64,000 bases of DNA from Clostridiales bacterium (GTDB lineage: Bacteria; Bacillota; Clostridia; Lachnospirales; Lachnospiraceae), in the NCBI GenBank assembly GCA_021202655.1, contig JAJQCO010000231.1, positions 25 through 64,024 of the forward strand, written 5' to 3'. Under the pieces are notes generated by a model, which ran no database searches, was not told the DNA's origin, and was given only the letters and a program-made list of their open reading frames with translations. How positions within the stretch are numbered: position 1 is the first letter of the stretch; every line of letters begins with the position of its first letter. A program made the translations under genes and the position numbers. Below, one piece after another: positions 1,912 to 59,777 of this stretch.

Positions 1912-2715
1912 ATGGGAGAAGTATTCGAAACCTACATGAATGACCTCGGATTATCGCAGAATACGATCCGGGCCTATCTCTACTCGGAAAAACAGTTTAA
2001 AGACCGTTACCGAACCGTCAACCGCAAGAATCTGCGGGATTACAAGGTTTTTCTGATCGACAACTATCAGCCGCAGACCGTCAATCTGCGAATTCGCGGG
2101 ATCAACTGCTATCTGGAAAGCCAGAACATGGAGAAATGGAAGCTTAGCGCTGTCAAATTTCAGCAGAAGCCCTTTCTGGAAAATATCATCAGTGAAGCGG
2201 ACTATCTCTATTTTAAGAACTGCCTGAAGCGGGACGGAGAAACTCTCTGGTATTTCGTGGTCCGTTTCATGGGCGCAACCGGAGCCCGCGTGAGCGAACT
2301 GATCCGGATCAAGGTGGAGCATGTACAAAAAGGATATTTTGACCTTTATTCCAAGGGCGGCAAGCTGCGCCGCATCTACTTCCCCGCCGCTCTCCGCCGG
2401 GAGGCGCTGGAATGGTTCCAGGAAACCGGCCTTACGAGCGGTTTTATCTTCTTAAACCGGAAGGGAAAGCAGATCACCGAGCGAGGGATCTCAAACCGCC
2501 TGAAATATTTTGGAGAAAAGTACGGCCTGGATCCGTCTGTCGTTTACCCGCACTCGTTCCGGCACCGCTTTGCCAAAAGCTTTCTGGAGCGCTACAATGA
2601 TATCGCGATGCTCGCGGACCTGATGGGTCATGAGAGTATTGAGACGACGCGCATTTATCTGAGGAAAACCAGCACCGAGCAGCAGGCTCTGATCGATAAG
2701 ATTGTGGACTGGTGA
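1912..2715 (+). CDS. tyrosine recombinase / integrase family protein (XerC/D-like, short ~267 aa form)
   Basis: The ORF track starts at a TTG at 1774. The ATG at 1912 follows AAAAGGGGA. It has an N-terminal SAM-like core-binding region (LSQNTIRAYLY) and catalytic-domain motifs GARVSEL, HSFRHRFA and GHESIETTRIY (R..HxxR..Y). Confidence 0.85.
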   Translation: MGEVFETYMNDLGLSQNTIRAYLYSEKQFKDRYRTVNRKNLRDYKVFLIDNYQPQTVNLRIRGINCYLESQNMEKWKLSAVKFQQKPFLENIISEADYLYFKNCLKRDGETLWYFVVRFMGATGARVSELIRIKVEHVQKGYFDLYSKGGKLRRIYFPAALRREALEWFQETGLTSGFIFLNRKGKQITERGISNRLKYFGEKYGLDPSVVYPHSFRHRFAKSFLERYNDIAMLADLMGHESIETTRIYLRKTSTEQQALIDKIVDW

Positions 2716-2811: not shown

Positions 2812-4485
2812 TTATGAATAGAACAGCCGGTTCACTGCGCTGAATATTCCCCTCACAGACGCCCGGGTAATATTGGAGCTGATTCCCACACCGTAGGTCG
2901 CCCGGCCGGTATCCTGATCCATCAGATGGATATAGGACGCCGCCTGTGCGCCGGAACCGGTGCTGAGCGCGTGTTCGTCGTAATCGAGCACCTTGATCTG
3001 GATGCCAAAAACATCCTCCATCCCGCGCTGTACGGCGTCGATCGGGCCGTTGCCCACGCCCTCGAAGGTCTTCTCGATACCGTGATCCGTGTAGGTAACC
3101 GTCGCGACTGTCGCGAACTCGCCCGGCTCGGTCTCCGTGTCGGTGATCCGCAGCCTGCGGAAATGCATGGGCTCCTTCTTCTCCAGGTAGCATTTGCGGA
3201 ATTCCTGCATAATCTGCTCCGGAGCGACTTCACCCTGCTTCTCGGAAATCTTCTGGATCACATCCGCAAATTCCTTGTGCATGCCCTTCGGCAGACGGAA
3301 GCCATAGAAGGTCTCCATCACGAAAGCTACGCCGCCCTTGCCGGATTGACTGTTGATGCGGACAATCGGCTCGTACACGCGCCCGATATCCGAGGGGTCG
3401 ATCGGAAGATAGGGAACCTCCCAGTGTCCGTCTCCTCTCTCCCGCATGGCCTGCATGCCCTTGTTGATCGCGTCCTGATGCGATCCGGAAAAGGCGGTAA
3501 AGACCAGCTTGCCCGCATACGGGTGACGCTCGTCGATGCCCATCTTTGTACAGCGCTCGTACACCTCCGCGATCTCACGAACATTCTCAATGTTCAGCTC
3601 CGGATCAATTCCCTGAGAGAACATGTTGTACGCCAGGGTAAGGATATCCACGTTGCCTGTGCGCTCCCCGTTGCCAAAAAGGGTTCCCTCGACACGGTCT
3701 GCTCCTGCCAGAAGCGCCAGCTCCGTCGCCGCCACGCCGGTCCCCCGGTCATTGTGCGGATGGACGCTGAGAATGATATTCTCCCTGTTCTTAAAATGCC
3801 GGCTCATCCACTCAATCTGGTCAGCGTAGACGTTCGGCGTCGTCATCTCGACCGTGGACGGCAGATTGAAAATAATCGGCCTGCCCGGCGTCGCATCGCC
3901 CCAGGTATCCTGCACGGCCGTGCAGACCTCGAGCGCGTAATCCAGCTCCGTGCCGGTGAAGCTCTCCGGAGAATACTCCAGCATCAGATCTCCATCGTAA
4001 TCCTTCATATATTTCTTTACCAGATTGGTACCGTCGATGGCGATCTGCTTCACCTCTTCCTTGCTTGCGTGGAATACCACGTCGCGCTGCAGGGTGGAGG
4101 TGGAATTGTAAATGTGGACGACTACCTTCTTGATGCCCTGAATGGATTCAAAGGTGCGCTTGATCAGATGCTCCCGGCACTGGACCAGCACCTGGATTCG
4201 GACGTCGTCCGGAATCATCTTCCGCTCTACCAGCTGTCTGAGGAAATCATACTCGATCTGGGAGGCAGACGGGAAACCGACCTCAATCTCCTTGAAGCCC
4301 AGCTTCACCAGCATGTTGAAAAACTCAACCTTCTCCTCCACGACCATTGGCTCCACCAGAGCCTGGTTGCCATCGCGCAGATCCACGCTGCACCAGACCG
4401 GCGCCTTCGTGATCTCCTTATTTGGCCATTCTCTCTCCGGGTAATCAACCACCGGATTCTTCCTGTATTTCTGATAATTTAACAT
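2812..4485 (-). CDS. leuA: 2-isopropylmalate synthase (long LeuA form)
   Basis: 557 aa with N-terminus MLNYQKYRKNP..WCSVDLRDGNQAL, an HPHNDRGTG metal-binding motif and a C-terminal LeuA dimerisation/regulatory region. AGGAGG lies upstream of the ATG. Confidence 0.93.
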   Translation of the reverse strand: MLNYQKYRKNPVVDYPEREWPNKEITKAPVWCSVDLRDGNQALVEPMVVEEKVEFFNMLVKLGFKEIEVGFPSASQIEYDFLRQLVERKMIPDDVRIQVLVQCREHLIKRTFESIQGIKKVVVHIYNSTSTLQRDVVFHASKEEVKQIAIDGTNLVKKYMKDYDGDLMLEYSPESFTGTELDYALEVCTAVQDTWGDATPGRPIIFNLPSTVEMTTPNVYADQIEWMSRHFKNRENIILSVHPHNDRGTGVAATELALLAGADRVEGTLFGNGERTGNVDILTLAYNMFSQGIDPELNIENVREIAEVYERCTKMGIDERHPYAGKLVFTAFSGSHQDAINKGMQAMRERGDGHWEVPYLPIDPSDIGRVYEPIVRINSQSGKGGVAFVMETFYGFRLPKGMHKEFADVIQKISEKQGEVAPEQIMQEFRKCYLEKKEPMHFRRLRITDTETEPGEFATVATVTYTDHGIEKTFEGVGNGPIDAVQRGMEDVFGIQIKVLDYDEHALSTGSGAQAASYIHLMDQDTGRATYGVGISSNITRASVRGIFSAVNRLFYS

Positions 4486-7287: not shown

Positions 7288-8316
7288 TCACGCCTGCCCG
7301 CGGTTTCCGTACATCTTCTCATAGTAATTCTGATACTCTCCCGAAAGGATCGTCTCCCACCACTCGCGGTTTTCCAGATACCAGCGGATGGTCTTGCGGA
7401 TGCCGTCCGCAAATTTTGTCTCCGGAAGCCAGCCAAGCTCTCTGTGAATCTTCGTCGGATCAATCGCATAGCGCATGTCGTGCCCCTTGCGGTCCGCCAC
7501 ATGGGTGATCAGGCTCTCCGGCTTTCCAAGCTCCTTGCAGATCAGCTTCACGATGTCAATGTTGCGCATCTCATTGTGTCCGCCCACATTATAGACCTCG
7601 CCGACCCGTCCCTTGTGAATGATCAGGTCGATCGCACGGCAGTGATCCTCCACATAAAGCCAGTCGCGCACATTCAGGCCTTCCCCGTACACCGGAAGCG
7701 GCTTGTCATTTAGCGCGTTCGCAATCATCAAGGGAATCAGCTTCTCCGGGAAATGATATGGGCCGTAGTTGTTCGAGCAGCGGCTGATCGTCACCGGCAG
7801 ACCGTATGTCCGGTGGTACGCCTGGACCAGAAGATCCGCGGCTGCCTTGGAGCTCGAATACGGACTGCTCGTGTGAATCGGCGTCTCCTCCGTGAAGAAC
7901 AGGTCCGGACGATCTAACGGCAGATCCCCGTACACCTCATCGGTTGACACCTGATGGTAACGGGTAATCCCATACTTGCGGCAGGCGTCCATTAAGACTG
8001 CCGTGCCGATGATATTGGTCTGCAGGAAAATGCCCGGATCCTCGATGGAGCGATCCACATGACTTTCCGCCGCAAAGTTCACCACCACATCCGGATGCTC
8101 CTCCTCAAAAAGCTGATACACGGCGTCGCGGTCACAGATATCCGCCTTGACAAAGCGGAAGTTTGGCTGATCCATCACCGGCTCCAGTGTTGAGAGATTT
8201 CCCGCATAGGTCAGCTTATCCAGGCAGATCACCCGATCCTCCGGGTGCTCCTTCAGCATATGAAATACAAAATTACCTCCGATGAATCCGGCGCCGCCGG
8301 TCACAATCACATTCAT
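7288..8316 (-). CDS. rfbB: dTDP-glucose 4,6-dehydratase
   Basis: VTGGAGFIGGNF, STDEVYG and YSSSKAA (SDR YxxxK) motifs, ~340 aa. Confidence 0.93.
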   Translation of the reverse strand: MNVIVTGGAGFIGGNFVFHMLKEHPEDRVICLDKLTYAGNLSTLEPVMDQPNFRFVKADICDRDAVYQLFEEEHPDVVVNFAAESHVDRSIEDPGIFLQTNIIGTAVLMDACRKYGITRYHQVSTDEVYGDLPLDRPDLFFTEETPIHTSSPYSSSKAAADLLVQAYHRTYGLPVTISRCSNNYGPYHFPEKLIPLMIANALNDKPLPVYGEGLNVRDWLYVEDHCRAIDLIIHKGRVGEVYNVGGHNEMRNIDIVKLICKELGKPESLITHVADRKGHDMRYAIDPTKIHRELGWLPETKFADGIRKTIRWYLENREWWETILSGEYQNYYEKMYGNRGQA

Positions 8317-9375: not shown

Positions 9376-10441
<1,066 letters not shown>

Positions 10442-31090: not shown

Positions 31091-31143
31091 ACTTACCAAA
31101 GCATACGGAAGAAGCTGCTAGTGGCAGGTCCTGTAATTCAGAT

Positions 31144-31944
31144 TCATTTTAGACCGACGTTGCGAAGAAGCTCGTTCGCAGCCTCGCCCTGCTCGCTCCA
31201 GAAGTTCCCCAGTACGCGAAGCTGCATGCCGATATTGAAGTGGCGGACGCCCAGCTCCAGATAAAATTTCATGTCATCCACGGTATTCATCTCCGCCCGC
31301 GGAGCTACGCCGTGTTTCATAGCAGTCTCAATCAGACGCGCTTCCACGTCACGAAGCATTGTCCTGTTCTCCGCAGGGTCGAGCCCCAGACTCATACAAT
31401 AATCGTTCGGTCCGAACTGGATCATATCCACGCCCGGCACGGAACAGATCTCGTCGATGTTTCGCACCGCCTCTTCCTTCTCAATCATAAAAGCCTTCAC
31501 CGGCTCACTTGCCATCTTCAGGTATTCTTCCTGGTTCATGGACATGCGGTTGCTGATCCAGCGACGGTTTACAAATCCCATATGTCCGCCATATTCGGGC
31601 GACTCCGGCGTCAGCTTGTCCAGCGTATCCGCCACTGCCTCCGCCGTCCGGTGATCACAGAACAGGACAGCCTGAAATCCGGACACGACCGCCTTCTGGG
31701 CCACATAGAAACGATTCTGATAGTCTACCTTAATCATGCTGCCCATCTGATGAACCTCTGCCGCACGGGCCATATTTTCCAGGTCATAATTGTCATACGG
31801 CGCGTATTCGGCAGAAAACTCAATATAATCATACTGACCGGTCGCACCCGCCACCTCTATCACCATCGGCCAGGTAGACTGGATTCTGGTTCCAATCGTC
31901 GGAATGTTGTGTTCCAAATGATATCTCAATACATTTCTATCCAT
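31144..31944 (-). CDS. HpcH/HpaI family 2-keto-3-deoxy-acid aldolase
   Basis: ~265 aa with IGTRIQSTWPMVIEVAGATGQYDYIEFSAEY.. and ..VDMIQFGPNDY.. typical of HpcH/HpaI aldolases. The ATG at 31944 is preferred, and the track start at 31965 is a GTG. Confidence 0.75.
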   Translation of the reverse strand: MDRNVLRYHLEHNIPTIGTRIQSTWPMVIEVAGATGQYDYIEFSAEYAPYDNYDLENMARAAEVHQMGSMIKVDYQNRFYVAQKAVVSGFQAVLFCDHRTAEAVADTLDKLTPESPEYGGHMGFVNRRWISNRMSMNQEEYLKMASEPVKAFMIEKEEAVRNIDEICSVPGVDMIQFGPNDYCMSLGLDPAENRTMLRDVEARLIETAMKHGVAPRAEMNTVDDMKFYLELGVRHFNIGMQLRVLGNFWSEQGEAANELLRNVGLK

Positions 31945-31973
31945 AATTTCAAATCCTGCTTTCACTTAAAATT

Positions 31974-32097
31974 TACTATGAAAGTCCAAGAAGCGGAGCC
32001 GAAGGCGAACGCTGATTGGCAACTTTCATGTATGCATGCGGCGCTTAGCGAAGTCAAGCCATCAGGCGCAGACTGAGCTTAGCATAGTCGTTTACTA
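31974..32097 (+). repeat. structured intergenic repeat, copy 1 (two-hairpin ~125-nt element)
   Basis: Aligns over its whole length with 48898-49022 (reverse complement) and 56578-56698. It contains the ATGAAAGT...ACTTTCAT clamp. It lies between tctA and the aldolase gene. Confidence 0.85.
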
Positions 32098-32113
32098 CAC
32101 CTGTCAGATACGT

Positions 32114-33610
32114 CTACTCTTTTGCCGTTTTTCTGTTCTTTATCTCTCCCCGGATGGTCAGAACCAGCACGACCACTGTAATTACCAGAAAGAACAGCGA
32201 GATCGGAGAAGTTACAAACGGCAGAAAGCTTCCCTGGCTCTTTTGCAACCCACGCCGCAGATTCGTTTCTAGCGTCGATCCCAGAATAAATCCCAAAATG
32301 ATCGGAGCCTGTGGAAACTGGAGCTTTTTAAGCCCGTAACCAATCAGTCCCGCTGCAATCATCACAAACACATCGAACACCCGGTTATTATTTCCGTAAG
32401 CGCCGACCACACAGAATATCATGACAATCGGCAGGAGCAGATTTTTCGGCACATTCAGTATTTTCGTAAAAATACGGATTCCGCCAAATTCTACAATCAG
32501 CATCATGATATTGGCGATAATAAGAGCCGTAAAAATCCCGTATACCAGCGTCGTCTGCGAACGGAACAAAAGCGGTCCCGGCGTAATCCCGTGAATCATG
32601 AAGCCGGCCAGGATCAGCGCGGTGGTATTGTCTCCCGGAAGTCCCAGGGTGAGAAGCGGCACCAGAGCGCCTCCCGTGGAAGCATTGTTGGAGGATTCGG
32701 AGGCGATGATCCCATCCACGATCCCGGTTCCGAATTTTTCCGGATATTTAGAGTGATTTTTACACACGGAGTAAGCGATAATATTACAGATGCCCGCTCC
32801 CAATCCGGGCAGAATCCCGATCCCGGTTCCGATCAGAGTCGACACCCAGAAGTTGAAGCCCTGTCCCTTTACGTCCTCCCTCGTAAAACCAAATCCCTTG
32901 ATTTTATAGTCCTGGACGATAACCTCTTCCTCTTTAAACTTTTCCTCAATGCCCGACAACACCTGTGACACCGCAAACAGACCAATCAGAAACGGAAGCA
33001 GTGCGAATCCCGCGTTCAGCTCCGTGATCCCGAATGTGAAACGTGTAAAGCTTGTGATCGGCGCGATTCCCACAAAGGATAACACCACGCCGAGCATCCC
33101 GGCGATAATCCCCTTTACCAGTGATCCGGAAGAAAGCCCCGCAATCATGGTAAGCGAAAACAGTGCAATGGAAAAATACTCATACGGGCCAAACTGCAGA
33201 GCCACCTTGGCGATCTGCGGAGCCAGCATCATCAGGATGATATAGCTGACCATGCCCCCCAGGAAGGAAGCCACAATGCCGACTCCCAACGCTTTCTGCG
33301 CCTCGCCCTTCGCCGCCATGGGATGCCCGTCAAAGGTTGTGGCGACAGACGCCGTCGTTCCCGGTATGCTGAGCAGAATCGCCGAGATCAGGCCGCCCGA
33401 GGTGCCTCCAATATACAACCCCATGAGCAGCGACAGACCCGCCACCGGTTCCATCCCATAAGTCAGAGGGAGGAAGAGCGCCACGCCCATCGTGACCGAC
33501 AGGCCGGGAATCGCTCCGATGATAATTCCCATGAACACACCAAGGAGAATCAAAAGAAGGATCTGCGGGGCGAATACGGACACGATCCCCGCCAAAATTT
33601 CTGCCGACAT
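32114..33610 (-). CDS. tctA: tripartite tricarboxylate transporter large permease
   Basis: ~500 aa polytopic protein with GAIPGLS, GTTASVAT and GILPGLGAG motifs typical of TctA. Confidence 0.85.
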   Translation of the reverse strand: MSAEILAGIVSVFAPQILLLILLGVFMGIIIGAIPGLSVTMGVALFLPLTYGMEPVAGLSLLMGLYIGGTSGGLISAILLSIPGTTASVATTFDGHPMAAKGEAQKALGVGIVASFLGGMVSYIILMMLAPQIAKVALQFGPYEYFSIALFSLTMIAGLSSGSLVKGIIAGMLGVVLSFVGIAPITSFTRFTFGITELNAGFALLPFLIGLFAVSQVLSGIEEKFKEEEVIVQDYKIKGFGFTREDVKGQGFNFWVSTLIGTGIGILPGLGAGICNIIAYSVCKNHSKYPEKFGTGIVDGIIASESSNNASTGGALVPLLTLGLPGDNTTALILAGFMIHGITPGPLLFRSQTTLVYGIFTALIIANIMMLIVEFGGIRIFTKILNVPKNLLLPIVMIFCVVGAYGNNNRVFDVFVMIAAGLIGYGLKKLQFPQAPIILGFILGSTLETNLRRGLQKSQGSFLPFVTSPISLFFLVITVVVLVLTIRGEIKNRKTAKE

Positions 33611-42680: not shown

Positions 42681-43982
42681 TCAGACCTCCGCAGCCTTTT
42701 TGTCTACAATCAGCTTTTCGACGCTCACAAGCTTCACGCAGAGCGCAAACAGCTTCATGGCAATCTTTAAATCATCTAACGGCGGATACGACGGCGCGAT
42801 GCGGATGTTGCTGTCATGCGGATCCTTTCCGTAGGGGAAGGTCGCGCCGGCGCCGGTCATCACCAGTCCGGCCTTTTTGCATCTGGCCACGATGTGCTTC
42901 GCGCAGCCTTCCATGGAATCAAACGAGATGAAATATCCGCCGTTCGGCTTCGTCCAGGTTCCGATCCCCAGTCCGCCAAGCTCCTCCTCCAGCGTCTCTT
43001 CCACCGCCTCAAACTTCGGGCGCAGGATATCCGCGTGCCGGCGCATGTGCTCCACCATACCGTGAATATCCTTAAAGAAGCGGACATGGCGCAGCTGATT
43101 GACCTTGTCGTGGCCGATCGTCTGATACTTTAACTGCTTCTCGATATCCTCCAGGTTGTTGCTGGAAGCCGCGATCGCCGCGATGCCGGAGCCCGGGAAG
43201 GTGATCTTCGAGGTGGAAGAAAACTTATAAACCATATCCGGATTTCCCGCCCGCTTACATTCTGCCAGAATCTCAATCAGATGATCCTGATCATGGTCAT
43301 AAAGGTGATGAATGCCGTAGGCATTATCCCAGTAAATCCGGAAATCCGGAGCGGCCGGCTTCAAACGGGCCAGGCGGCGCACCGTCTGATCGGAATAGCT
43401 GTTTCCGGTCGGGTTGGAATACTTCGGCACGCACCAGATACCCTTGATGGAATCATCCTCCGCCACCAGCTTCTCCACCATATCCATATCCGGGCCGTCG
43501 CCGAGAAGCGGCACGTTGATCATCTCGATGCCGAAATACTCCGTGATCCCGAAATGACGGTCATACCCAGGCACGGGACAGAGGAATTTTACCTTGTCCA
43601 GCTTACACCACGGGGTGCAGCCCATCACGCCGTGCGTCATGGAACGGGAAACCGTATCAAACATGACGTTCAGGCTGGAATTCCCATAGATAATCACATT
43701 TTCCGGGGCAACCTCCATCATATCGCCGATCAGGATCTTTGCCTCCCGGATGCCGGTCAGGACGCCGTAATTGCGGCAGTCCGTGCCGTCCTCACAGATC
43801 AGATCCTCATCACTGTTCAGCACATCCATCATGCCCATCGACAGATCCAGCTGCTCGGCGCTGGGCTTGCCGCGGGACATGTTCAGCTTCAGATCCTTCA
43901 GCTGAAACTCCCTGTATTTTGCCGAAAGCTGTGTTCTCAATTCCTGCAATTCTTCCAGACTCAATTCCGCATATGGCTGCAT
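42681..43982 (-). CDS. PLP-dependent aminotransferase (class I/II fold; probable aspartate aminotransferase family)
   Basis: 433 aa. N-terminal LNMSRGKPSAEQLDLS and a PLP-lysine region FSSTSKITFPGSG. Co-directional with and immediately downstream of gatB. Confidence 0.7.
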   Translation of the reverse strand: MQPYAELSLEELQELRTQLSAKYREFQLKDLKLNMSRGKPSAEQLDLSMGMMDVLNSDEDLICEDGTDCRNYGVLTGIREAKILIGDMMEVAPENVIIYGNSSLNVMFDTVSRSMTHGVMGCTPWCKLDKVKFLCPVPGYDRHFGITEYFGIEMINVPLLGDGPDMDMVEKLVAEDDSIKGIWCVPKYSNPTGNSYSDQTVRRLARLKPAAPDFRIYWDNAYGIHHLYDHDQDHLIEILAECKRAGNPDMVYKFSSTSKITFPGSGIAAIAASSNNLEDIEKQLKYQTIGHDKVNQLRHVRFFKDIHGMVEHMRRHADILRPKFEAVEETLEEELGGLGIGTWTKPNGGYFISFDSMEGCAKHIVARCKKAGLVMTGAGATFPYGKDPHDSNIRIAPSYPPLDDLKIAMKLFALCVKLVSVEKLIVDKKAAEV

Positions 43983-47281: not shown

Positions 47282-48613
47282 CTACGGGTTCAGGCGGGTG
47301 ACGTCTCTCGGGAAAAGGGTCGTCTCACGCACATTCTGCTCATCCAGAAGCCGCATGGTCAGACGCTCCAGGCCGATGCCCAGGCCACCGTGCGGCGGCA
47401 TCCCATAGCGGAAGATCATCAGATAATCGCTGATGTCCGCAGGATCCATATTCCGCTTCTCCATCTTATCCAGGATCATCGCATAATCATGAATCCTCTG
47501 TCCGCCGGTCGTGATCTCCAGACCCTTATAGAGCAGATCGAAGCTCAGAGTAAACCGCGGATCCGCCGGGTCGTCCATCGCATAGAAGGGACGTTTTTTG
47601 CTGGGATAATGCGTGACAAACACGAAATCACTGCCGTATTCCTCTTTGAAATACCGTCCGATCAGTCCCTCCTCTTCCGGCTCCAGGTCGAACGGATTGC
47701 GGATCTTCCGCCCGTATTTCTCCGATACCAGCTCCTTCGCTACATCAAACCGAACCTGGGGAATCTTCTCGATATGGGGAACCTCGACGCCCAGGATCTT
47801 AAGCTCCGTCTGATATTCCCTTCCAAGGAGCTCCATGGTATAAATCAAGAAACCGGTCTCCATCGCCATAACATCCTCAAAGCTCTCAATATAACCCATC
47901 TCAAAATCCAGGCTGGTGTATTCGTTCAGATGTCGGGTCGTGTTGTGCTTCTCCGCGCGGAACACCGGCGCGGTCTCAAACACCCGGTCAAATACCCCCA
48001 CCATCATCTGCTTATAAAACTGCGGGCTCTGCCCCAGCTCCGCTTTTTTATTAAAATAATTCAGCTTAAAGACGTTCGCTCCTCCCTCCGCGCCGCGGGA
48101 TACGATCTTCGGCGTGTGAATCTCCGTAAAGCCCTGAGAGGACAAAAATTCGCGGAAGCCTCTGACCAGACCCTCCTGGATGCGGAACTTCGCCCGCTCA
48201 CGCACATTGCGGAGCGTGATCGGACGAAGCGCCAGCTTCGTCTCAAGAGAAGTGTTCAGCTTCCACTTGTTGATCGCAATCGGAAGCCCCTCCGCCGGCT
48301 CAGACAGCACCCGGATCTCACTCAAACGCAACTCAAATCCATGCGGCGCCCGCTCCTCCGTCGCAACGGTCCCGGTCACCACGACCGCCGCCTCCTCCTT
48401 CAGATTCTTCACATCAAACGCCGTCTTGCCCTCCTCGCAGACACACTGCACCAGGCCGTCCGCCCTGCGCAGGATCACAAAGGCGAATTCTCCCATATCG
48501 CGGATATTGTGTACCGCGCCTTCCATCTTCACGGTTTTGCCCACAAGATCCCCGTCCAGAATCGCGCGGATACCGATCGTCTCCTTCTCCTTTACGCCTG
48601 TCAAAAACTCCAT
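47282..48613 (-). CDS. aspS: aspartate--tRNA ligase, archaeal/type-2 form (likely non-discriminating)
   Basis: Class II motifs [22 protein letters not shown] and [10 protein letters not shown], ~443 aa. The ATG at 48613 follows AGGAGG, and the track start at 48700 lies inside the repeat element. It is co-operonic with gatCAB. Confidence 0.85.
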
Positions 48614-48637
48614 CTCTTCCTCCTGTCTTCTCTGTCT

Positions 48638-48902
48638 AGTATGAAAGTCGATGACTCCGCTCTGCGAGCTACTTTGTATAAGTTCGACTACGGAAATCAC
48701 AGATTTCCTGTCTCACTTATCTCGTCATCGCCGCCAGTATTCGCAATCCGGGCTTCTCCGCTCCGCTTCGGTCGGTGCTAAACGAGCGCCACCGGCGCTC
48801 AGCACCGCCCTACTTGCTCATACCGGCTTGGTTGCCAAATGTCTGTACGTCCTTGCGTGCAAGCACGCAGTCCGTACAGCCGCTTGGCAACACTTTCATA
48901 GT
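48638..48902 (-). repeat. 265-nt hairpin-rich relative of the intergenic repeat, bounded by the same ATGAAAGT/ACTTTCAT clamp
   Basis: Clamp at 48641-48648 / 48892-48899. Internal stems: CGATGAC/GTCATCG (48649-55 / 48724-30), GGAAATC/GATTTCC (48692-98 / 48702-08), GTGCT-GAGCGCC/GGCGCTC-AGCAC (48775-48805), and a long hairpin GTTGCCAA..CTGTACG..TGCGTGC/GCACGCA..CGTACAG..TTGGCAAC (48831-48891). Confidence 0.75.
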
Positions 48903-49022
48903 AAGCGACTATGCTAAGCTCAGTCTGCGCCTGGCGGCTTGACTTCGCTAAGCGCCGCTGCATACATGAAAGCAGCCAATCATTCTGCGCCTAACGGCTT
49001 GAATTCTTGGGCTTTCATAGTA
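48898..49022 (-). repeat. structured intergenic repeat, copy 2
   Basis: Its reverse complement aligns end to end with 31974-32097 and 56578-56698. It starts directly after the T-box terminator U-run. Confidence 0.85.
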
Positions 49023-49381
49023 AAAAATCCCGCCCCGGAATACTGTCACATATTCCGGGACGGGACATATCTCCTCTATGCTTCCCGCGGTACCACCCGC
49101 ATTGAACGCCGCCGCCCGCAACCGGAACTGCAGCCTTCCACTCTTAAGCCGTAACGTGACCTGACGGGTATCCCTACGCAGCCGCCCTGCCGCGCGCCTC
49201 ATGCGGCAGCCTCTCCGGCTCTTTCGAAATACCGGCTCCGGAGTGTTCCCTTCTGCCACGTCCAACCTGACGGCGCTCTCAGTCGGTGACGCCCTCTCCC
49301 TGTCGAAGTCCTGCTGGCAAGAGTCTCCTTCTCAGCCTTTCCCGTGTTCCCAGACATCTGCATGTCGCCGAACACCAGATT
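49022..49381 (-). promoter_or_regulatory. T-box riboswitch leader of the aspS-gatCAB operon
   Basis: The minus strand reads AATGCGGGTGGTACCGCGGGAAG (T-box sequence, 49083-49103). A terminator follows: TCCCGTCCCGGAATA..TATTCCGGGGCGGGA plus TTTTTT (49022-49065). Upstream are AGGGAGAG / TGAGAG Stem-I-like elements and two GGGAACAC motifs. Confidence 0.85.
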
Positions 49382-49387
49382 TCTAAC

Positions 49388-49416
49388 ATCTTAGCACAAG
49401 TTATTTTTGAATGCAA
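49388..49416 (-). promoter_or_regulatory. sigma-A promoter of the T-box leader
   Basis: The minus strand has TTGCAT, a 17-nt spacer and TAAGAT, with a TG at the extended -10 position. Confidence 0.55.
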
Positions 49417-49445
49417 GGTCAAATTTGAACAAAGATTCCGTCCTG

Positions 49446-50762
49446 TCAATTAAGGAATGCGCTAAACTGCCCGAAGAGAATGCCCGCGAGGATCAGTACG
49501 ATCCCTCCGCCTAGGCGCGTCGACAGCTGCGCGTAGGAAATCAGACCCATACGCCCGGACGCTCCCAGCACCGCCAGATCACCGGCTCCGCCCCGGTTCG
49601 CCATACACAGCCCGGCCGTGATCGCCGAATCGATTGGGTACAGCCCGACCAGCCATCCCACAATCGCCGAGCCGATCACCGCGCCGAGGACGATCGCCAG
49701 CGCGATCACCACATTGGCCGGCGTCAGCACGCGAAACATAATATCAACATTCGTATCCGCACCGACGCCAACCATGAGAATCAGCGCCATATTGGTGCTG
49801 AAAAATGCCTGCAACCTTCTGGCTGCCGCGCAGATATGATCCGGAATGATTCCCAGCATGGACGCAGCCAGTACCAACGCGATCATACAGGTCAGGGCAT
49901 GAATCGGGACCCCAAGGATCTTCGGCAGAACCGCCACCGAAAGCAGTCGACCAAGCGCATAAAATCCAAGCGCCAGGAAAAACGCGCCCCCAAGATCACG
50001 CACGCTGCAGCCGACCCGCTTACGATCCGTCGGCGCCACACCGCCCTTTCTGAGCAGCACCTTTCCGTCCCCCGTCCACTCCGGGTTTTTCCTCCCGACC
50101 CGGTCAAGCAGCGCGGCGATCAGCACCGCGAAGACATTGGCAACCGTCAGAATCATAATCGCAAAGGTATAATAGCCCGCGGACGGAGCGCCGGTCACTG
50201 TCTGATAAATCTGACTGAGAGGAATGGCTCCCGCTCCGTTGCCTCCGCTCATAATGGGAAGCATATACTTAAGGATCACCGCTAACGGCTGCACGCCAAA
50301 CAGCACGCCCGCCATCGCGCCGAACAGCGACGCCCCCGCCAGACCGCCCAGGATCGCCGGAATATACCGCCGGAAGGAACGGATCAGCAGATTTCGATCC
50401 AGCGAAAGGAGGGAGCCGGTGATGACGATGATGATATACAGCGTCAGAAAATCCGCCAGATTCATCACACTCCGGATGGATTCCGCATAGACATGCGGAA
50501 TGATCTGCCAGGAAAACAGACAGGCCGACGCCAGAAAGGTAAGCATCAGCCCGCCCCCTATGTAAGTATTCCAGATCGGAATCCGCTCTCCGATCTCATT
50601 ACAGATAATTCCGATCGCCAGCATCAGCGCAAAACACCCCGCCGCATCCGTAGATAGCGCCCCCGTCATCGCCGCGACAATGGCGACAAGCGCCGCCCCC
50701 ACGGCAAGATACCACGGCAGACCAAACGTGATCGGATGAAGTCCCTTCCCCTCTGACATCAT
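49446..50762 (-). CDS. 2-hydroxycarboxylate transporter family protein (citrate/malate:cation symporter-like)
   Basis: ~438 aa polytopic protein. FGLPWYLAVGA.., NEIGERIPIWNTYIGGG, and two reentrant-loop-like GGNGAG / NRGGAGD motifs characteristic of the 2HCT family. Confidence 0.75.
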   Translation of the reverse strand: MMSEGKGLHPITFGLPWYLAVGAALVAIVAAMTGALSTDAAGCFALMLAIGIICNEIGERIPIWNTYIGGGLMLTFLASACLFSWQIIPHVYAESIRSVMNLADFLTLYIIIVITGSLLSLDRNLLIRSFRRYIPAILGGLAGASLFGAMAGVLFGVQPLAVILKYMLPIMSGGNGAGAIPLSQIYQTVTGAPSAGYYTFAIMILTVANVFAVLIAALLDRVGRKNPEWTGDGKVLLRKGGVAPTDRKRVGCSVRDLGGAFFLALGFYALGRLLSVAVLPKILGVPIHALTCMIALVLAASMLGIIPDHICAAARRLQAFFSTNMALILMVGVGADTNVDIMFRVLTPANVVIALAIVLGAVIGSAIVGWLVGLYPIDSAITAGLCMANRGGAGDLAVLGASGRMGLISYAQLSTRLGGGIVLILAGILFGQFSAFLN

Positions 50763-56413: not shown

Positions 56414-56508
56414 ATAGAACAAAACAATATCCGGCCATAAATCATCCTTATAATCGGCGACCGCCGACTTCGCCAGACCGGAATCTTTGCCGTTAAAAGC
56501 TCCGGATA

Positions 56509-56550
56509 CCAAAACCGCCGCATGAGCCCATCTTCGGACTCATACGGCGG
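56509..56550 (-). terminator. rho-independent terminator of the phosphoglucomutase gene
   Basis: The minus strand reads CCGCCGTATGAG..loop..CTCATGCGGCGG followed by TTTTGG. It lies downstream of repeat copy 3. Confidence 0.8.
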
Positions 56551-56577
56551 AACATTCCATCGTAAACTCCAGGAAAT

Positions 56578-56698
56578 TACAATGGAAGTCCAAGAATCCA
56601 AGCCGTTAGGCGCAGGATGATTGGCAACTTCCATGTATGCAGCGGCGCTTAGCGAGAGCGAGTCGTAAGACGATGCTCGAACTTAGCATAGTCGCTTA
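56578..56698 (+). repeat. structured intergenic repeat, copy 3
   Basis: Aligns with copies 1 and 2. The clamp here is ATGGAAGT...ACTTCCAT. Its last 3 nt (TTA) are the complement of the phosphoglucomutase TAA stop. Confidence 0.85.
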
Positions 56699-58435
56699 TT
56701 TCGTCAGCTCGGTCACAATCGCATCCACTGCCTTGCCAAACGCCGCGGACTTCGCGTCGGCGTCTTCCAGAGAAGCGCCCTTCACTCCATAATAGAACTT
56801 GATCTTCGGCTCTGTTCCGGAAGGTCTTACGCACATCCATGCGTTATCGTTCATATCATAGTAAAGAACATTGGAGGACGGAAGGCCGGTCGGAGTGACC
56901 TCGCCGGTCGCCATATTCTGAATCGTATCCTTCTGATAATCGCGGGCAGACAGAACCTGATAGCCGCCCACCTCTGTCGGCGGATCGTTCCGCAGGGACT
57001 CCATAATCGCCTTGATCTTTGCCAGACCCTCGATGCCTGCCAGACCGATGGACTTGACGGCGTCCTTATAGTAGCCGTACTTATTGTACATATCGATCAT
57101 CGCATCCCACAGAGTCTTGCCCTGGGTCTTGTAGTACGCAGCCGCCTCGCACAGAGCAACCGTCGCGGAAACTGCGTCCTTATCGCGCGCGTAGGTGCCG
57201 ATCAGGCAGCCGTAGCTCTCTTCCATACCGAACATATAATGGCCGACGCCTGTCCTCTCCTCCTTGAGCACCTGCTGTCCGATCCACTTGAATCCGGTCA
57301 GGCACTCCACCAGCTTACAGTCATAGCCCGCCGCAACCGCGTCGATCAGGTTCGTGCTGACGATGGACTTGACCACCTCGCCGTCAGCCGGAATCGCGTT
57401 CTGCGCCTTCTTCTGGCTCAGCACATACTCGCACAGAAGGGAACCGGACATATTGCCGGTCAGAGAAATATACTCGCCGGACTTCGTATCCTTCACATAA
57501 ACGCCCAGGCGGTCTGCATCCGGATCGGTCGCCAGAACCAGATCCGCGTCGATCTCCTTCGCAAGCTTTAAGCCAAGCGCGAATGCCTCCGCCGCCTCCG
57601 GGTTCGGATAGCTGACGGTCGGGAACTCACCGTCCGGCAGCTCCTGCTCACGGACAACATATACATTCTCGAAACCAATGTCATGCAGCGCACGGCGAAC
57701 CAGAATATTACCGGTGCCGTGAAGCGGGGTATAAACAATCTTAATATCCTTCTGCATCGCGTTGATGGCATCCTGGTTCACCACCTGCGCCTCAACCTGC
57801 GCCAGATACTTATCATCCATGTCAGCGCCGATGACCTTGTAAAGGCCAAGAGACTTCGCGTCGGACGCGGTCATGGTCTTCACGGTGGACAGATCCTCAA
57901 TGGCCAGCACTTCCTCTGTCACGCCCTTGTCATGAGGCGGGGTGAACTGTGCGCCGTCCTCCCAGTAAACCTTGTAGCCGTTGTACTCCGGCGGATTGTG
58001 GCTCGCAGTGATGTTGATACCGGCAATGCATCCCAGCTCGCGGACCGCAAAGGACAGCTCCGGCGTCGGGCGCAAAGACTCAAACTTATAAGCCCGGATC
58101 CCATTCGCCGCCAGGGTGCGGGCAGCCTCATCCGCAAACTCCGGAGACATCCGGCGGGAATCAAATGCGATCGCCACGCCCTTATCCGCGCCTCCCTGCT
58201 TGATAATATAATTGGCAAGGCCCTGCGTAGCCCGGCGCACCACATAGATATTCATCCGGTTGATGCCTGCGCCAAGCACTCCGCGAAGACCGGCGGTGCC
58301 AAACTCAAGATCCATATAGAAGCGCTCCTTGATCGCGTTCTCATCCCCTGCGATCGCTCTCAGCTCATCCTTCGTCGCTTCATCGAAATACGGATTGTCA
58401 AGCCACTCCTGATAGATCTTCATATAATCTTTCAT
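56696..58435 (-). CDS. phosphoglucomutase / phosphomannomutase family protein (alpha-PGM type)
   Basis: Phosphoserine loop TASHNPPEYNGYKV, Mg loop DPDADR, ~579 aa. The ATG at 58435 follows AGGAGGGAG. Confidence 0.9.
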   Translation of the reverse strand: MKDYMKIYQEWLDNPYFDEATKDELRAIAGDENAIKERFYMDLEFGTAGLRGVLGAGINRMNIYVVRRATQGLANYIIKQGGADKGVAIAFDSRRMSPEFADEAARTLAANGIRAYKFESLRPTPELSFAVRELGCIAGINITASHNPPEYNGYKVYWEDGAQFTPPHDKGVTEEVLAIEDLSTVKTMTASDAKSLGLYKVIGADMDDKYLAQVEAQVVNQDAINAMQKDIKIVYTPLHGTGNILVRRALHDIGFENVYVVREQELPDGEFPTVSYPNPEAAEAFALGLKLAKEIDADLVLATDPDADRLGVYVKDTKSGEYISLTGNMSGSLLCEYVLSQKKAQNAIPADGEVVKSIVSTNLIDAVAAGYDCKLVECLTGFKWIGQQVLKEERTGVGHYMFGMEESYGCLIGTYARDKDAVSATVALCEAAAYYKTQGKTLWDAMIDMYNKYGYYKDAVKSIGLAGIEGLAKIKAIMESLRNDPPTEVGGYQVLSARDYQKDTIQNMATGEVTPTGLPSSNVLYYDMNDNAWMCVRPSGTEPKIKFYYGVKGASLEDADAKSAAFGKAVDAIVTELTK

Positions 58436-58574
58436 AACCAAATACTCCCTCCTGTCGGTAGTTCCCGGGCACAGCAATCTGCAAATATGCACAAAATTAT
58501 CCCGGATTCATTTTAATACATGAACCTATTATATAACAGGCTGCCGGAAAAAGGAAGGAAAAAGTATGCAAAAA

Positions 58575-59777
58575 TCACAGATTTATTTTTGACAGGAACA
58601 ATTTCCTGGATTTCTGACGGGCTTCAATGGCTTTCAGCTTCTCCACGTTCTTCTCCGGTATCCACGCCTTGTTGGCGCTGTTATAATAATTCAGCTGCTT
58701 CCAGTATTTTTCCGGATATAAGAACAGATAATACAGACATTTTCGCTCCTCCCGGGAAATCGGCCGGACGCGGTCGTAGCGCTCGATCATCGCCAGTCCA
58801 AGCCCTCCGTCCCAATCCTGCCGTTCCAGGCATTTGCGCAGGAAACGGTACAGATCCGTCATCTGAATGCCGCGGTGCATCTGATTGAATTCAATAAAAA
58901 CCGCCTCCGGGCCACGGATCAGAATGTGATGCTGATCCAGATCGCCGTGGCAGAGCGCCTGCGGCAGACAGGCATTTTCTCCCTTTTCTTCGCGCGCCCC
59001 GTCCCTTCCCGTCTCCGCGCCGGTCGACATCCTGATATCCAGCAGATTTCCAACTACAGGACCTGCCACTGGCAGCTCCTTCCGTATGCTATGGCAAACT
59101 ACAGGACCTGCCACCGGCGGCTCCTTGCGTATGCCAGGGCAAAGAAGATGTTCCAGCCCCTCCTGTGCCTGCAGCGCCTCCTCATAATAGGAATCAAAAT
59201 GGGCAATCACACACCGCTCAAAATCGCCCTTCTTTTTCTGATTCCGGATAAAGGTGCGTACCCGCTTCATCTCCCGGGTATGGCGCCGCATCTCGCTCAA
59301 AGGCCCCGGCGGAAGCATGGATCGCAGATCCCACTCGTCCCGCCAGGCAATCTCTCCCATCGCCTGATGCAGCCGGGCAATGTGGGAGACCGCTCCCAGC
59401 ATTTCCCGGCTGTCCCGCAAACTGCATTCCCGGTCGCTGAACCATTCCTTCAATACATATTTCGTCCCATCCTCCGCGACTGTGAGAAGCTCTCCGTCCT
59501 GATTTCTCACATAGCGGTCGGTCAGGGCAATGCCCCGCTCTCCCAGCTCCTCCAGAACAGCCGTCTCAAATTCCAGACGCCGGACTGTTCCCCGATACTC
59601 CTTTAACTGCTTCACGCTGCCGTCAGACCATTGACAGATCCAGGCTCCCCTTCCCTTGCGGATACTGAGGGTCTCTCCCTCATAGTGCTGCAACGCTTCC
59701 AGATAACTGTCGTACACGCCCACCCCTCCACTCTGATGCCTGGTATCACAAAAGCCAGATTCCTCTGACCCCTGCAT
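58575..59777 (-). CDS. CotS-family / aminoglycoside-phosphotransferase-fold kinase-like protein
   Basis: Catalytic-loop-like LCHGDLDQHHILI followed by IEFNQM. This is the CotS-type spore coat protein kinase architecture. It contains an in-frame 45-bp tandem duplication. Confidence 0.7.
   Translation of the reverse strand: MQGSEESGFCDTRHQSGGVGVYDSYLEALQHYEGETLSIRKGRGAWICQWSDGSVKQLKEYRGTVRRLEFETAVLEELGERGIALTDRYVRNQDGELLTVAEDGTKYVLKEWFSDRECSLRDSREMLGAVSHIARLHQAMGEIAWRDEWDLRSMLPPGPLSEMRRHTREMKRVRTFIRNQKKKGDFERCVIAHFDSYYEEALQAQEGLEHLLCPGIRKEPPVAGPVVCHSIRKELPVAGPVVGNLLDIRMSTGAETGRDGAREEKGENACLPQALCHGDLDQHHILIRGPEAVFIEFNQMHRGIQMTDLYRFLRKCLERQDWDGGLGLAMIERYDRVRPISREERKCLYYLFLYPEKYWKQLNYYNSANKAWIPEKNVEKLKAIEARQKSRKLFLSKINL
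59052..59141. repeat. 2 x 45-bp in-frame tandem duplication inside the CotS-like gene
   Basis: 59052-59096 and 59097-59141 differ at only a few positions and encode (minus strand) IRKEPPVAGPVV.. / IRKELPVAGPVV... Confidence 0.85.

Follow-up and report, generated by a model that had tools for sequence, protein, structure and literature searches.

In the 64-kb stretch of Lachnospiraceae DNA considered here (Clostridiales contig JAJQCO010000231.1; hereafter the window, meaning the whole stretch analysed), the minus-strand operon aspS-gatC-gatA-gatB-aminotransferase is preceded by what reads as an asparagine-specific T-box, and the 408 nt that separate the T-box terminator from the aspS start codon are composed of two structured repeats lying end to end. 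The upstream repeat (unit 1) is a two-hairpin element, while the downstream one (unit 2) belongs to the Clostridiales-1 RNA family (RF01699). We consider it probable that this arrangement reflects a lineage-specific colonisation of the aspS leader, in which both repeats would be co-transcribed on read-through and insulated by their own closing clamps, leaving the T-box as the sole sensing step. The parts of the spacer and the start of aspS are as follows.

49022-48898, minus strand: two-hairpin repeat 'e122' (unit 1), 125 nt, defined by a repeat finder, a consensus fold and covariance models
49018-48966, minus strand: unit 1 hairpin 1, closed by AUGAAAGC/GCUUUCAU, with a 37-nt module at 49010-48976 (helix list)
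48959-48904, minus strand: unit 1 hairpin 2, with a 37-nt module at 48951-48914 (helix list)
48900-48640, minus strand: Clostridiales-1 RNA element (unit 2), from the RF01699 match and folds
48891-48831, minus strand: unit 2 P1, a 61-nt near-perfect hairpin with the family's GCUUGC apical loop (Rfam alignment, helix list)
48827-48733, minus strand: unit 2 P2, with UGAGCA...GCGAAU tandem-GA loops (Rfam alignment, helix list)
48730-48649, minus strand: unit 2 3' domain, stem 48730-48724/48655-48649 (folds)
48624-48619 and 48613-48611, minus strand: Shine-Dalgarno sequence AGGAGG and aspS start codon ATG (sequence)

Reckoned from the end of the terminator U-run at 49022 to the aspS start at 48613, the spacer occupies 49021-48614. 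This agrees with an earlier, sequence-only reading of the region, which had described some 410 nt of structured repeats, a repeat copy at 49022-48898 beginning where the U-run ends, and the AGGAGG and ATG of aspS following the second unit; a covariance model built from three copies of unit 1 returns the same coordinates for the repeat. With the terminator included (471 nt), the stretch folds at -210 kcal/mol, compared with -149 +/- 6 kcal/mol for dinucleotide shuffles (z = -9.8), and 0 of 100 shuffles did as well. The spacer resolves into a mosaic of two abutting, self-closing units (49022-48898 and 48900-48640), and its helices are identical in folds of 426, 471 and 766 nt, which indicates that it is made of autonomous domains. 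Folding of the full leader leaves the terminator hairpin intact and gives the Shine-Dalgarno sequence a mean unpaired probability of 0.63. The possibility, raised by the sequence-only reading, that a promoter within the spacer unlinks aspS from the T-box found no support: a consensus scan of 48400-49600 returned no promoter-like site in the spacer, where inspection by eye yields just weak -10-like hexamers. A terminator scan across the same region found the T-box terminator alone, and Rfam gave no match on the spacer to a riboswitch or to another known leader family.

Unit 1 is a repeat within the window itself. The covariance model of the two-hairpin unit (R1), built from the window copies, finds exactly three of full length, at 49022-48898 (minus), 31974-32098 (plus) and 56578-56702 (plus), with E = 5e-34 to 2e-31, and compensatory changes occur among them in 9 of 40 predicted pairs. 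A second model (R2), describing the 37-nt core, finds six modules in the 64-kb window and a few in related genomes. The two copies outside the aspS leader lie beside unrelated genes.

31974-32098, plus strand: unit-1 copy two, between tctA (32114-33610, minus) and an HpcH/HpaI-family gene (31144-31965, minus)
56578-56702, plus strand: unit-1 copy three, abutting the phosphoglucomutase stop codon (gene 56696-58492, minus)

Copy three stands upstream of the phosphoglucomutase terminator (about 56500-56545). Both of these copies are antisense to the neighbouring genes, and the copy in the aspS leader is sense. A scan of the window against Rfam 15, at E up to 1, gave no family for unit 1, and a search of a phage database produced just one trivial 54-nt match.

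Unit 2 adds a member to an orphan RNA family already described. RF01699 matches 48898-48691 (minus) over model positions 1-166 with 68 bits (E = 8.2e-13; gathering score 48), and this is the one RF01699 copy in the window. The element is closed by a 9-bp clamp, UAUGAAAGU/ACUUUCAUA (48900-48892 / 48648-48640), that extends about 50 nt beyond the RF01699 match. When the four stems of the family were checked, P1 and P2 fitted RF01699 well; P3 and the Rfam closing stem aligned poorly, with several non-canonical marks. The energetically favoured closure differs from the Rfam closing stem, being the clamp together with extra hairpins: the stem of the 3' domain encloses a GA/GA hairpin (48720-48678) and a small hairpin (48669-48659). 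At the apex of P2, 53 nt stand where the RF01699 consensus has 10, and they are taken up mainly by a nested hairpin at 48806-48774. The sequence-only reading was accurate in describing the second unit as clamp-closed and packed with hairpins, since it holds the 61-nt hairpin, a branched stem with its nested hairpin, the GA/GA hairpin and the small hairpin. Its further proposal, that this 265-nt unit is a relative of the 125-nt repeat, survives in part. The two have the clamp and a general architecture of G.A-loop hairpins in common; there is no kinship in sequence, and the R2 module model has no match inside unit 2.

Weinberg et al. (2010, PMC2864571) described the Clostridiales-1 motif as a four-stem RNA that is very common in gut DNA and covaries well, and they judged it not to be cis-regulatory. 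A single genome, NZ_AAVL02, contributes several sequences to their alignment. Rfam types RF01699 as a small-RNA gene, and two metagenome contigs carry the motif followed by a terminator-like hairpin, in an orientation that does not follow that of the neighbouring genes. These points speak for unit 2 as an independent small-RNA gene with its own promoter, such that aspS would be driven or influenced from the spacer and the T-box would be partly unlinked. In this leader, however, the scan of 48400-49600 described above gave neither a promoter-like site nor any terminator besides that of the T-box, unit 2 abuts unit 1 with no gap, and it ends 16 nt before the Shine-Dalgarno sequence with no U-run. 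We therefore regard a separate small-RNA gene as very improbable here.

Several further observations concern Clostridiales-1 sequences elsewhere (loci and contigs outside the window are given L numbers). The nested hairpin of about 55 nt (GYUGCUGAGCGCCRGUGGCGCUCG..., window 48806-48758, minus) occurs solo in L067 at 8140-8196 (minus) and again in L008 at about 9890-9940, the latter inside an aspS spacer. In one metagenome copy of Clostridiales-1 (L096), about 170 nt are inserted at this P2 apex. The sole other contig with an identical AspS, L001, begins in the 3' end of unit 2, its positions 1-56 being window 48669-48614; such a start would be expected if a short-read assembly had broken at a repeat. 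A search for a protein identical to TctA gave no match. An attempt at a Clostridiales-1 model of our own, from 13 published seeds, was abandoned in favour of the Rfam model, as the MAFFT alignment lost the closing stem and P1 and recovered 24 pairs. A profile hidden Markov model of the seeds had low sensitivity and pointed to Clostridiales-1-like variants in L068, L041 and L038.

The two units have a closing sequence in common. This clamp, AUGAAAGY/RCUUUCAU, measures 8-9 bp; in unit 1 it closes hairpin 1 alone, and in unit 2 it bounds the whole element. A search for inverted pairs up to a distance of 420 nt found only four clamp-bounded units in the window, namely the three unit-1 copies and the Clostridiales-1 element. 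All four clamp starts are preceded by TTAC (49023-49020 and 48904-48901, minus; 31973-31976 and 56577-56580, plus), and unit 1 also terminates in TTAC or TTAT; the TTAC may be an insertion target, an end of the element or simply a piece of the stem. As to an autonomous element with the same ends, no further clamp-like pair was found within the 420-nt distance in the 64-kb window, longer elements falling outside the scan. Four other identities for the repeats were considered and rejected. Insertion of an IS200/IS605-type element 3' of TTAC does not suit the mixed orientation of copies within 25 kb, the lack of any transposase seen, or the position of TAC in a hairpin stem. A CRISPR array or type III antitoxin array is at odds with units that vary in a compensatory way instead of being identical, gaps of about 20 nt and housekeeping neighbours. 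A kink-turn (K-turn) is excluded by GA loops that are symmetric, 2x2, with no 3-nt bulge, and a coding repeat by copies that are intergenic and vary by base-pair covariation.

Comparison with orthologous leaders places both units in this lineage. A protein-guided scan gathered 80 Lachnospiraceae loci with AspS 69-86% identical, and a T-box core stands upstream of aspS in nearly all of them. In the 77 of these leaders that were measured, the terminator T-run ends a median of 84 nt before the ATG (interquartile range 61-136 nt, maximum 375 nt), so that the window spacer is the longest and the expectation of the sequence-only reading, that such terminators normally lie near the ribosome-binding site, holds. 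R1 detects no full unit-1 copy in 1.39 Mb of orthologous loci, none of the eight orthologous loci tested has a gathering-level RF01699 match, and the orthologous spacers have no conserved non-repeat sequence in common of the kind that might have marked a known leader class. In the closest relative, the metagenome-assembled genome (MAG) L082, whose AspS is 93% identical, the promoter block, T-box and terminator are retained at high identity; its spacer of about 113 nt is unrelated to units 1 and 2 and holds another small repeat. L082 likewise lacks unit 1 at the 3' end of its phosphoglucomutase gene. The comparison with related genomes that the sequence-only reading had proposed thus finds the units to be lineage-specific.

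The small hairpin repeat of the relative, TGCCRTAGCATACGGAAGGARCTGCCNGTGGCAGGTCCTGYAG, lies at about 9890-9935 of L082, in the aspS spacer. It is also present in the window, at 59052-59141 (plus, two tandem 45-nt copies) and, inverted, at 31093-31138; the open reading frames that overlap 59052-59141 have no Pfam match.

In other species the same place is taken by other repeats. About one-fifth of the spacers in the orthologues are longer than 150 nt and dense in structure, with differing repeats. Tandem units occupy the aspS spacers of L020/L024 and of L069/L072. A Clostridiales-1-like variant lies in the aspS spacer of L068, of which its neighbour L074 keeps the 3' part only, and a remnant of Clostridiales-1 P3 lies in that of L048. 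L073 has a spacer insertion of about 94 nt that is missing from L071 and has a copy elsewhere in L061. To judge from these sequences, the spacer after the aspS T-box terminator is a recurrent landing site for repeats. Among the interpretations offered by the sequence-only reading, insertion is therefore the one that fits best: both units are repeats found in unrelated contexts, both are missing from the closest relative and from the 77 leaders, and other species have filled the position differently. Three of the contigs compared, L029, L052 and L061, are labelled Bacteroidaceae, Senegalimassilia and Tidjanibacter, respectively; each carries an aspS of Lachnospiraceae type under the same T-box leader and has probably been placed in the wrong genome bin.

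The same comparison bears on the idea of a dedicated second regulatory layer, also put forward in the sequence-only reading, according to which the spacer would be a ligand- or protein-responsive switch for the asparagine pathway, in tandem with the T-box. Tandem leader arrangements exist in Firmicutes, and the structure is very stable and supported by covariation. On the other hand, the same units stand beside unrelated genes (tctA, phosphoglucomutase, rpsH, pgk, rRNA), their association with aspS is not conserved in the 77 orthologous leaders or the closest relative, and no riboswitch or known leader family matches them. Nor is there an expression platform, as the Shine-Dalgarno sequence is not sequestered and there is no second terminator. 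A second switch of this kind is, on these grounds, extremely unlikely, and that part of the sequence-only reading is not upheld.

The leader upstream of the repeats, and the genes downstream, comprise the following features.

49416-49388, minus strand: putative aspS leader promoter, picked out by eye as TTGCAT (49416-49411), 17 nt, TGc-TAAGAT (49393-49388)
49342-49053, minus strand: T-box leader, from an Rfam T-box (RF00230) match together with specifier and core
49066-49022, minus strand: T-box intrinsic terminator, 17-bp stem 49066-49027 and U-run 49027-49022 (terminator scan)
48613-42681, minus strand: operon aspS-gatC-gatA-gatB-aminotransferase (NCBIfam matches)

The promoter block is also kept in L082; the consensus promoter scan did not flag it, its -35 hexamer matching at just 3 of 6 bases. 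RF00230 aligns to the T-box leader over model positions 1-219 with 47 bits (E = 7.6e-9), short of the gathering score of 93. The alignment gives AAC (Asn) as the specifier codon, at 49247-49245 and followed by a purine, and aligns the antiterminator part with high posterior probability; the T-box core, GGUGGUACCGCG, is at 49097-49086 (minus), and orthologues retain GGGAAC(A/G)C. None of the aspS leaders in the eight orthologous loci scanned reaches the gathering score either; the lone T-box in those loci that does so, in L038 with 107.5 bits, is about 8 kb away from aspS, on its upstream side. We accordingly read 49342-49022 as an Asn-specifier T-box on the tRNA-dependent asparagine pathway, its sub-threshold score notwithstanding. 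The operon is the one named by the sequence-only reading, as all five products have NCBIfam matches above the curated cut-offs: a non-discriminating AspRS (aspS, 48613-47282), gatC (47253-46960), gatA (46949-45435), gatB (45434-43998) and an aspartate aminotransferase of type Ic (43982-42681), all on the minus strand. Inside the aminotransferase gene, at 43790-43842 (minus), the archaeal C/D-box RNA sR1 matches weakly, with 24.8 bits (gathering score 45) and E = 0.032, which is most likely due to chance.

An asparagine-responsive T-box reportedly precedes aspS-gatCAB in Clostridium acetobutylicum as well, going by the titles of work published by Saad and colleagues in 2012 and 2013 (cited in PMC4206432). 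As far as titles and general knowledge allow the comparison, the systems are alike in the AAC specifier and in an operon of non-discriminating AspRS and GatCAB. To our knowledge, no long repeat-filled spacer has been reported there.

The hairpin from which unit 1 is built has a wide distribution in gut bacteria beyond the window. Its 37-nt core combines a CUUAG/CUUAG stem, interrupted by a U.U mismatch, with a symmetric GA/GA loop, a variable helix of 4 bp, a further purine-rich loop in which RA faces GNA, and a tip of 3 bp. A strict pattern for unit-1 hairpin 2 had no match in metagenome contigs; a degenerate pattern of the 37-nt core was required, and gave at least 120 matching stretches, from which 80 loci were fetched. 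Among the matches listed, R2 recognises 159 modules in 93 arrays, of which 45 are single, 41 double, 6 triple and 1 of five units. The start-to-start spacing of modules in these matches is almost always 56-59 nt, with 57 nt dominant, and one 13-kb contig has nine modules. In the R2 alignment the paired cells amount to 95.8%, compared with 20-43% in slid controls, and compensatory changes occur in 10 of 11 pairs. R1, for its part, matches about 42 of the metagenome units listed from end to end, with 88.8% of cells paired and compensatory changes in 37 of 40 pairs (slid controls, 26-37% paired). Both alignments are fitted to their models, and some of the conservation in sequence was imposed by the search pattern itself. 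In 12 metagenome loci with the module, Rfam 15 gives no match at E up to 0.01, and literature searches on miniature inverted-repeat transposable elements (MITEs) or REP elements in Lachnospiraceae or Clostridia found nothing relevant; the family of unit 1 thus matches no Rfam model in the window or in those 12 contigs and is absent from the literature searched.

The arrays recur at particular places in operons, overall 5-13 nt after stop codons. They follow the rpsH stop by 12-13 nt, before rplF, in at least 10 contigs, and at least 10 contigs have them between pgk and the tpiA that follows it; one contig has an array between a 5S-tRNA-Ala pair and 23S rRNA. Viral contigs seldom contain the module (3 matches). 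Arrays were also seen between L5/S14 and S8 and directly upstream of a ribosome-binding site, and examples from metagenomes include L093 3365-3460 (minus), L094 6193-6286 (minus), L103 319-586 (plus) and L159 255-461 (plus). Three Mediterraneibacter aspS leaders contain the 37-nt module (L063 9832-9868, L080 9841-9878 and L065 6765-6801, all plus) between a conserved AGAG(U/G)GG element and the T-box core, where it makes up T-box Stem III; next to this module, L065 contains additional hairpins of a related kind. In L029, modules at 2356-2393 (minus), 2618-2655 (minus) and 3002-3037 (plus), of mixed orientation, extend to about 800 nt downstream of aspS, which ends at 2235. In other loci gatC directly follows aspS, so that in L029 the repeats appear to have entered the interior of the operon too.

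Placed beside known repeats, the hairpin family of unit 1 might be viewed as a Clostridial counterpart of REP or BOX elements. The REP/BIME elements and REPINs of Enterobacteria and Pseudomonas are likewise short imperfect palindromes (about 37-57 nt), extragenic and transcribed (as the present family would be), often just after stop codons, and they too occur singly or in small arrays, in many copies, counted across contigs for the present family, and with a presence that varies between close relatives. They differ in being arranged as inverted pairs, whereas the present family, in Clostridia, forms direct repeats at a fixed phase of about 57 nt, with conserved tandem G.A loops and a bias to the sense strand, both of which point to a fold at the level of RNA. 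REPs affect mRNA decay and the translation of upstream genes. BOX in pneumococcus, Correia in Neisseria, ERIC in enterobacteria and bcr1 in Bacillus cereus resemble the units, on general knowledge and with no match in sequence, as mosaics of self-folding modules in variable number that sit in untranslated parts of operons, are co-transcribed (as the present units would be) and have terminal inverted sequences, for which the 8-9-bp clamp is the candidate here. The differences are that no target-site duplication or parent insertion sequence was identified for the units and that the clamp of unit 1 closes the first hairpin only. Unit 2 finds its counterpart in Clostridiales-1 itself, which it resembles in the full-model match, the GCUUGC-tipped P1 and the UGAGCA/GCGAAU core of P2, in a gut-type Lachnospiraceae host (the relatives of the window are Lachnospiraceae) and in belonging to a multi-copy family that is not tied to a gene. 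It departs from the family in the 53-nt P2 insertion, the divergent P3 with its extra hairpins and the clamp about 50 nt further out, and it sits in sense orientation in an mRNA leader, downstream of a T-box terminator.

In the colonisation that we favour, two structured intergenic repeats would have entered the aspS leader of this lineage just past the terminator U-run. Uncharged tRNA-Asn would stabilise the antiterminator, whereupon polymerase would read through and transcribe both units within the aspS-gatCAB mRNA. Each unit is closed by its own clamp and would therefore fold on itself, with no pairing to the terminator/antiterminator or to the ribosome-binding site, and the T-box would remain the only amino-acid-sensing step. 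Any effect on the transcript would most likely be generic, in the manner of REP or BOX an additional protection or processing site, and not specific to asparagine.

Several points weigh against this account. Neither unit has yielded a target-site duplication or an exact empty site, and the aspS spacer of the relative is too diverged to delimit the ends of the insertion. No transposase turned up, although few window proteins were scanned and no search aimed at RAYT proteins was made. The comparison covers one genome per species and 64 kb of this genome, and co-transcription and near-neutrality for regulation are what we infer from the sequence. The occurrence of Clostridiales-1-like sequence in the same spacer of L068 and L048 could reflect preference or function, not chance. 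Finally, among the metagenome matches listed, the upstream gene is co-stranded with the array in 57 cases against 15; counting one array per context, with crude gene calling, the sense bias is 31 to 15 (p = 0.026), and G.U pairs outnumber A.C mismatches by 36 to 14. Recurrent operon positions, sense bias and wobble excess together suggest selection at the level of RNA, in which case the copy in the leader, being sense, may not be neutral.

These last figures are also the substance of the main alternative, in which the inserted units are repeats by origin and act on the RNA: as a stable structured block they would, after antitermination, determine how long the aspS-gatCAB mRNA lasts, offer a site of processing at which the T-box is removed, or delay ribosomes or exonucleases in reaching the transcript, much as REP or BOX elements and stabiliser hairpins between cistrons do. 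Besides the sense orientation of the aspS-leader copy and of the family at large, it draws on arrays that recur, in many contigs, at set places in highly expressed operons (rpsH-rplF, pgk-tpiA, the rRNA spacer), on strand-specific features such as the invariant GA/GA loops and the preference for G.U over A.C, and on very stable helices, including the 61-nt hairpin, that could be RNase III substrates. Set against it are the antisense orientation of the other two window copies, a closest relative that manages without the units, and the fact that nothing ties them to asparagine. We think such a role, which was the remaining proposal of the sequence-only reading, unlikely. It is similarly doubtful, though conceivable, that the GA/GA rods, in arrays of 1-5 units at a 57-nt phase and perhaps together with Clostridiales-1, constitute an undescribed RNA-level system of gut Clostridia that binds a dedicated partner or sets transcript fate; if they do, the copy in the asparagine T-box leader would exert real post-antitermination control over the tRNA-dependent Asn pathway and would be no passive filler.

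Under the colonisation reading, the consequence for T-box biology is mostly an ordinary one, a leader colonised by repeats with its riboswitch logic intact. Annotators should also be aware that a long structured stretch in a Firmicute leader may turn out to be inserted repeats. For Clostridiales-1, an orphan since 2010, a copy has now been found in what would be a defined inducible transcript, beside a repeat with the same closing clamp, and this context makes it possible to ask whether the family is a mobile structured repeat or a small-RNA gene. The placement of the hairpin family at rpsH, at pgk and in the rRNA spacer, in turn, makes REP-like biology in Clostridia testable.

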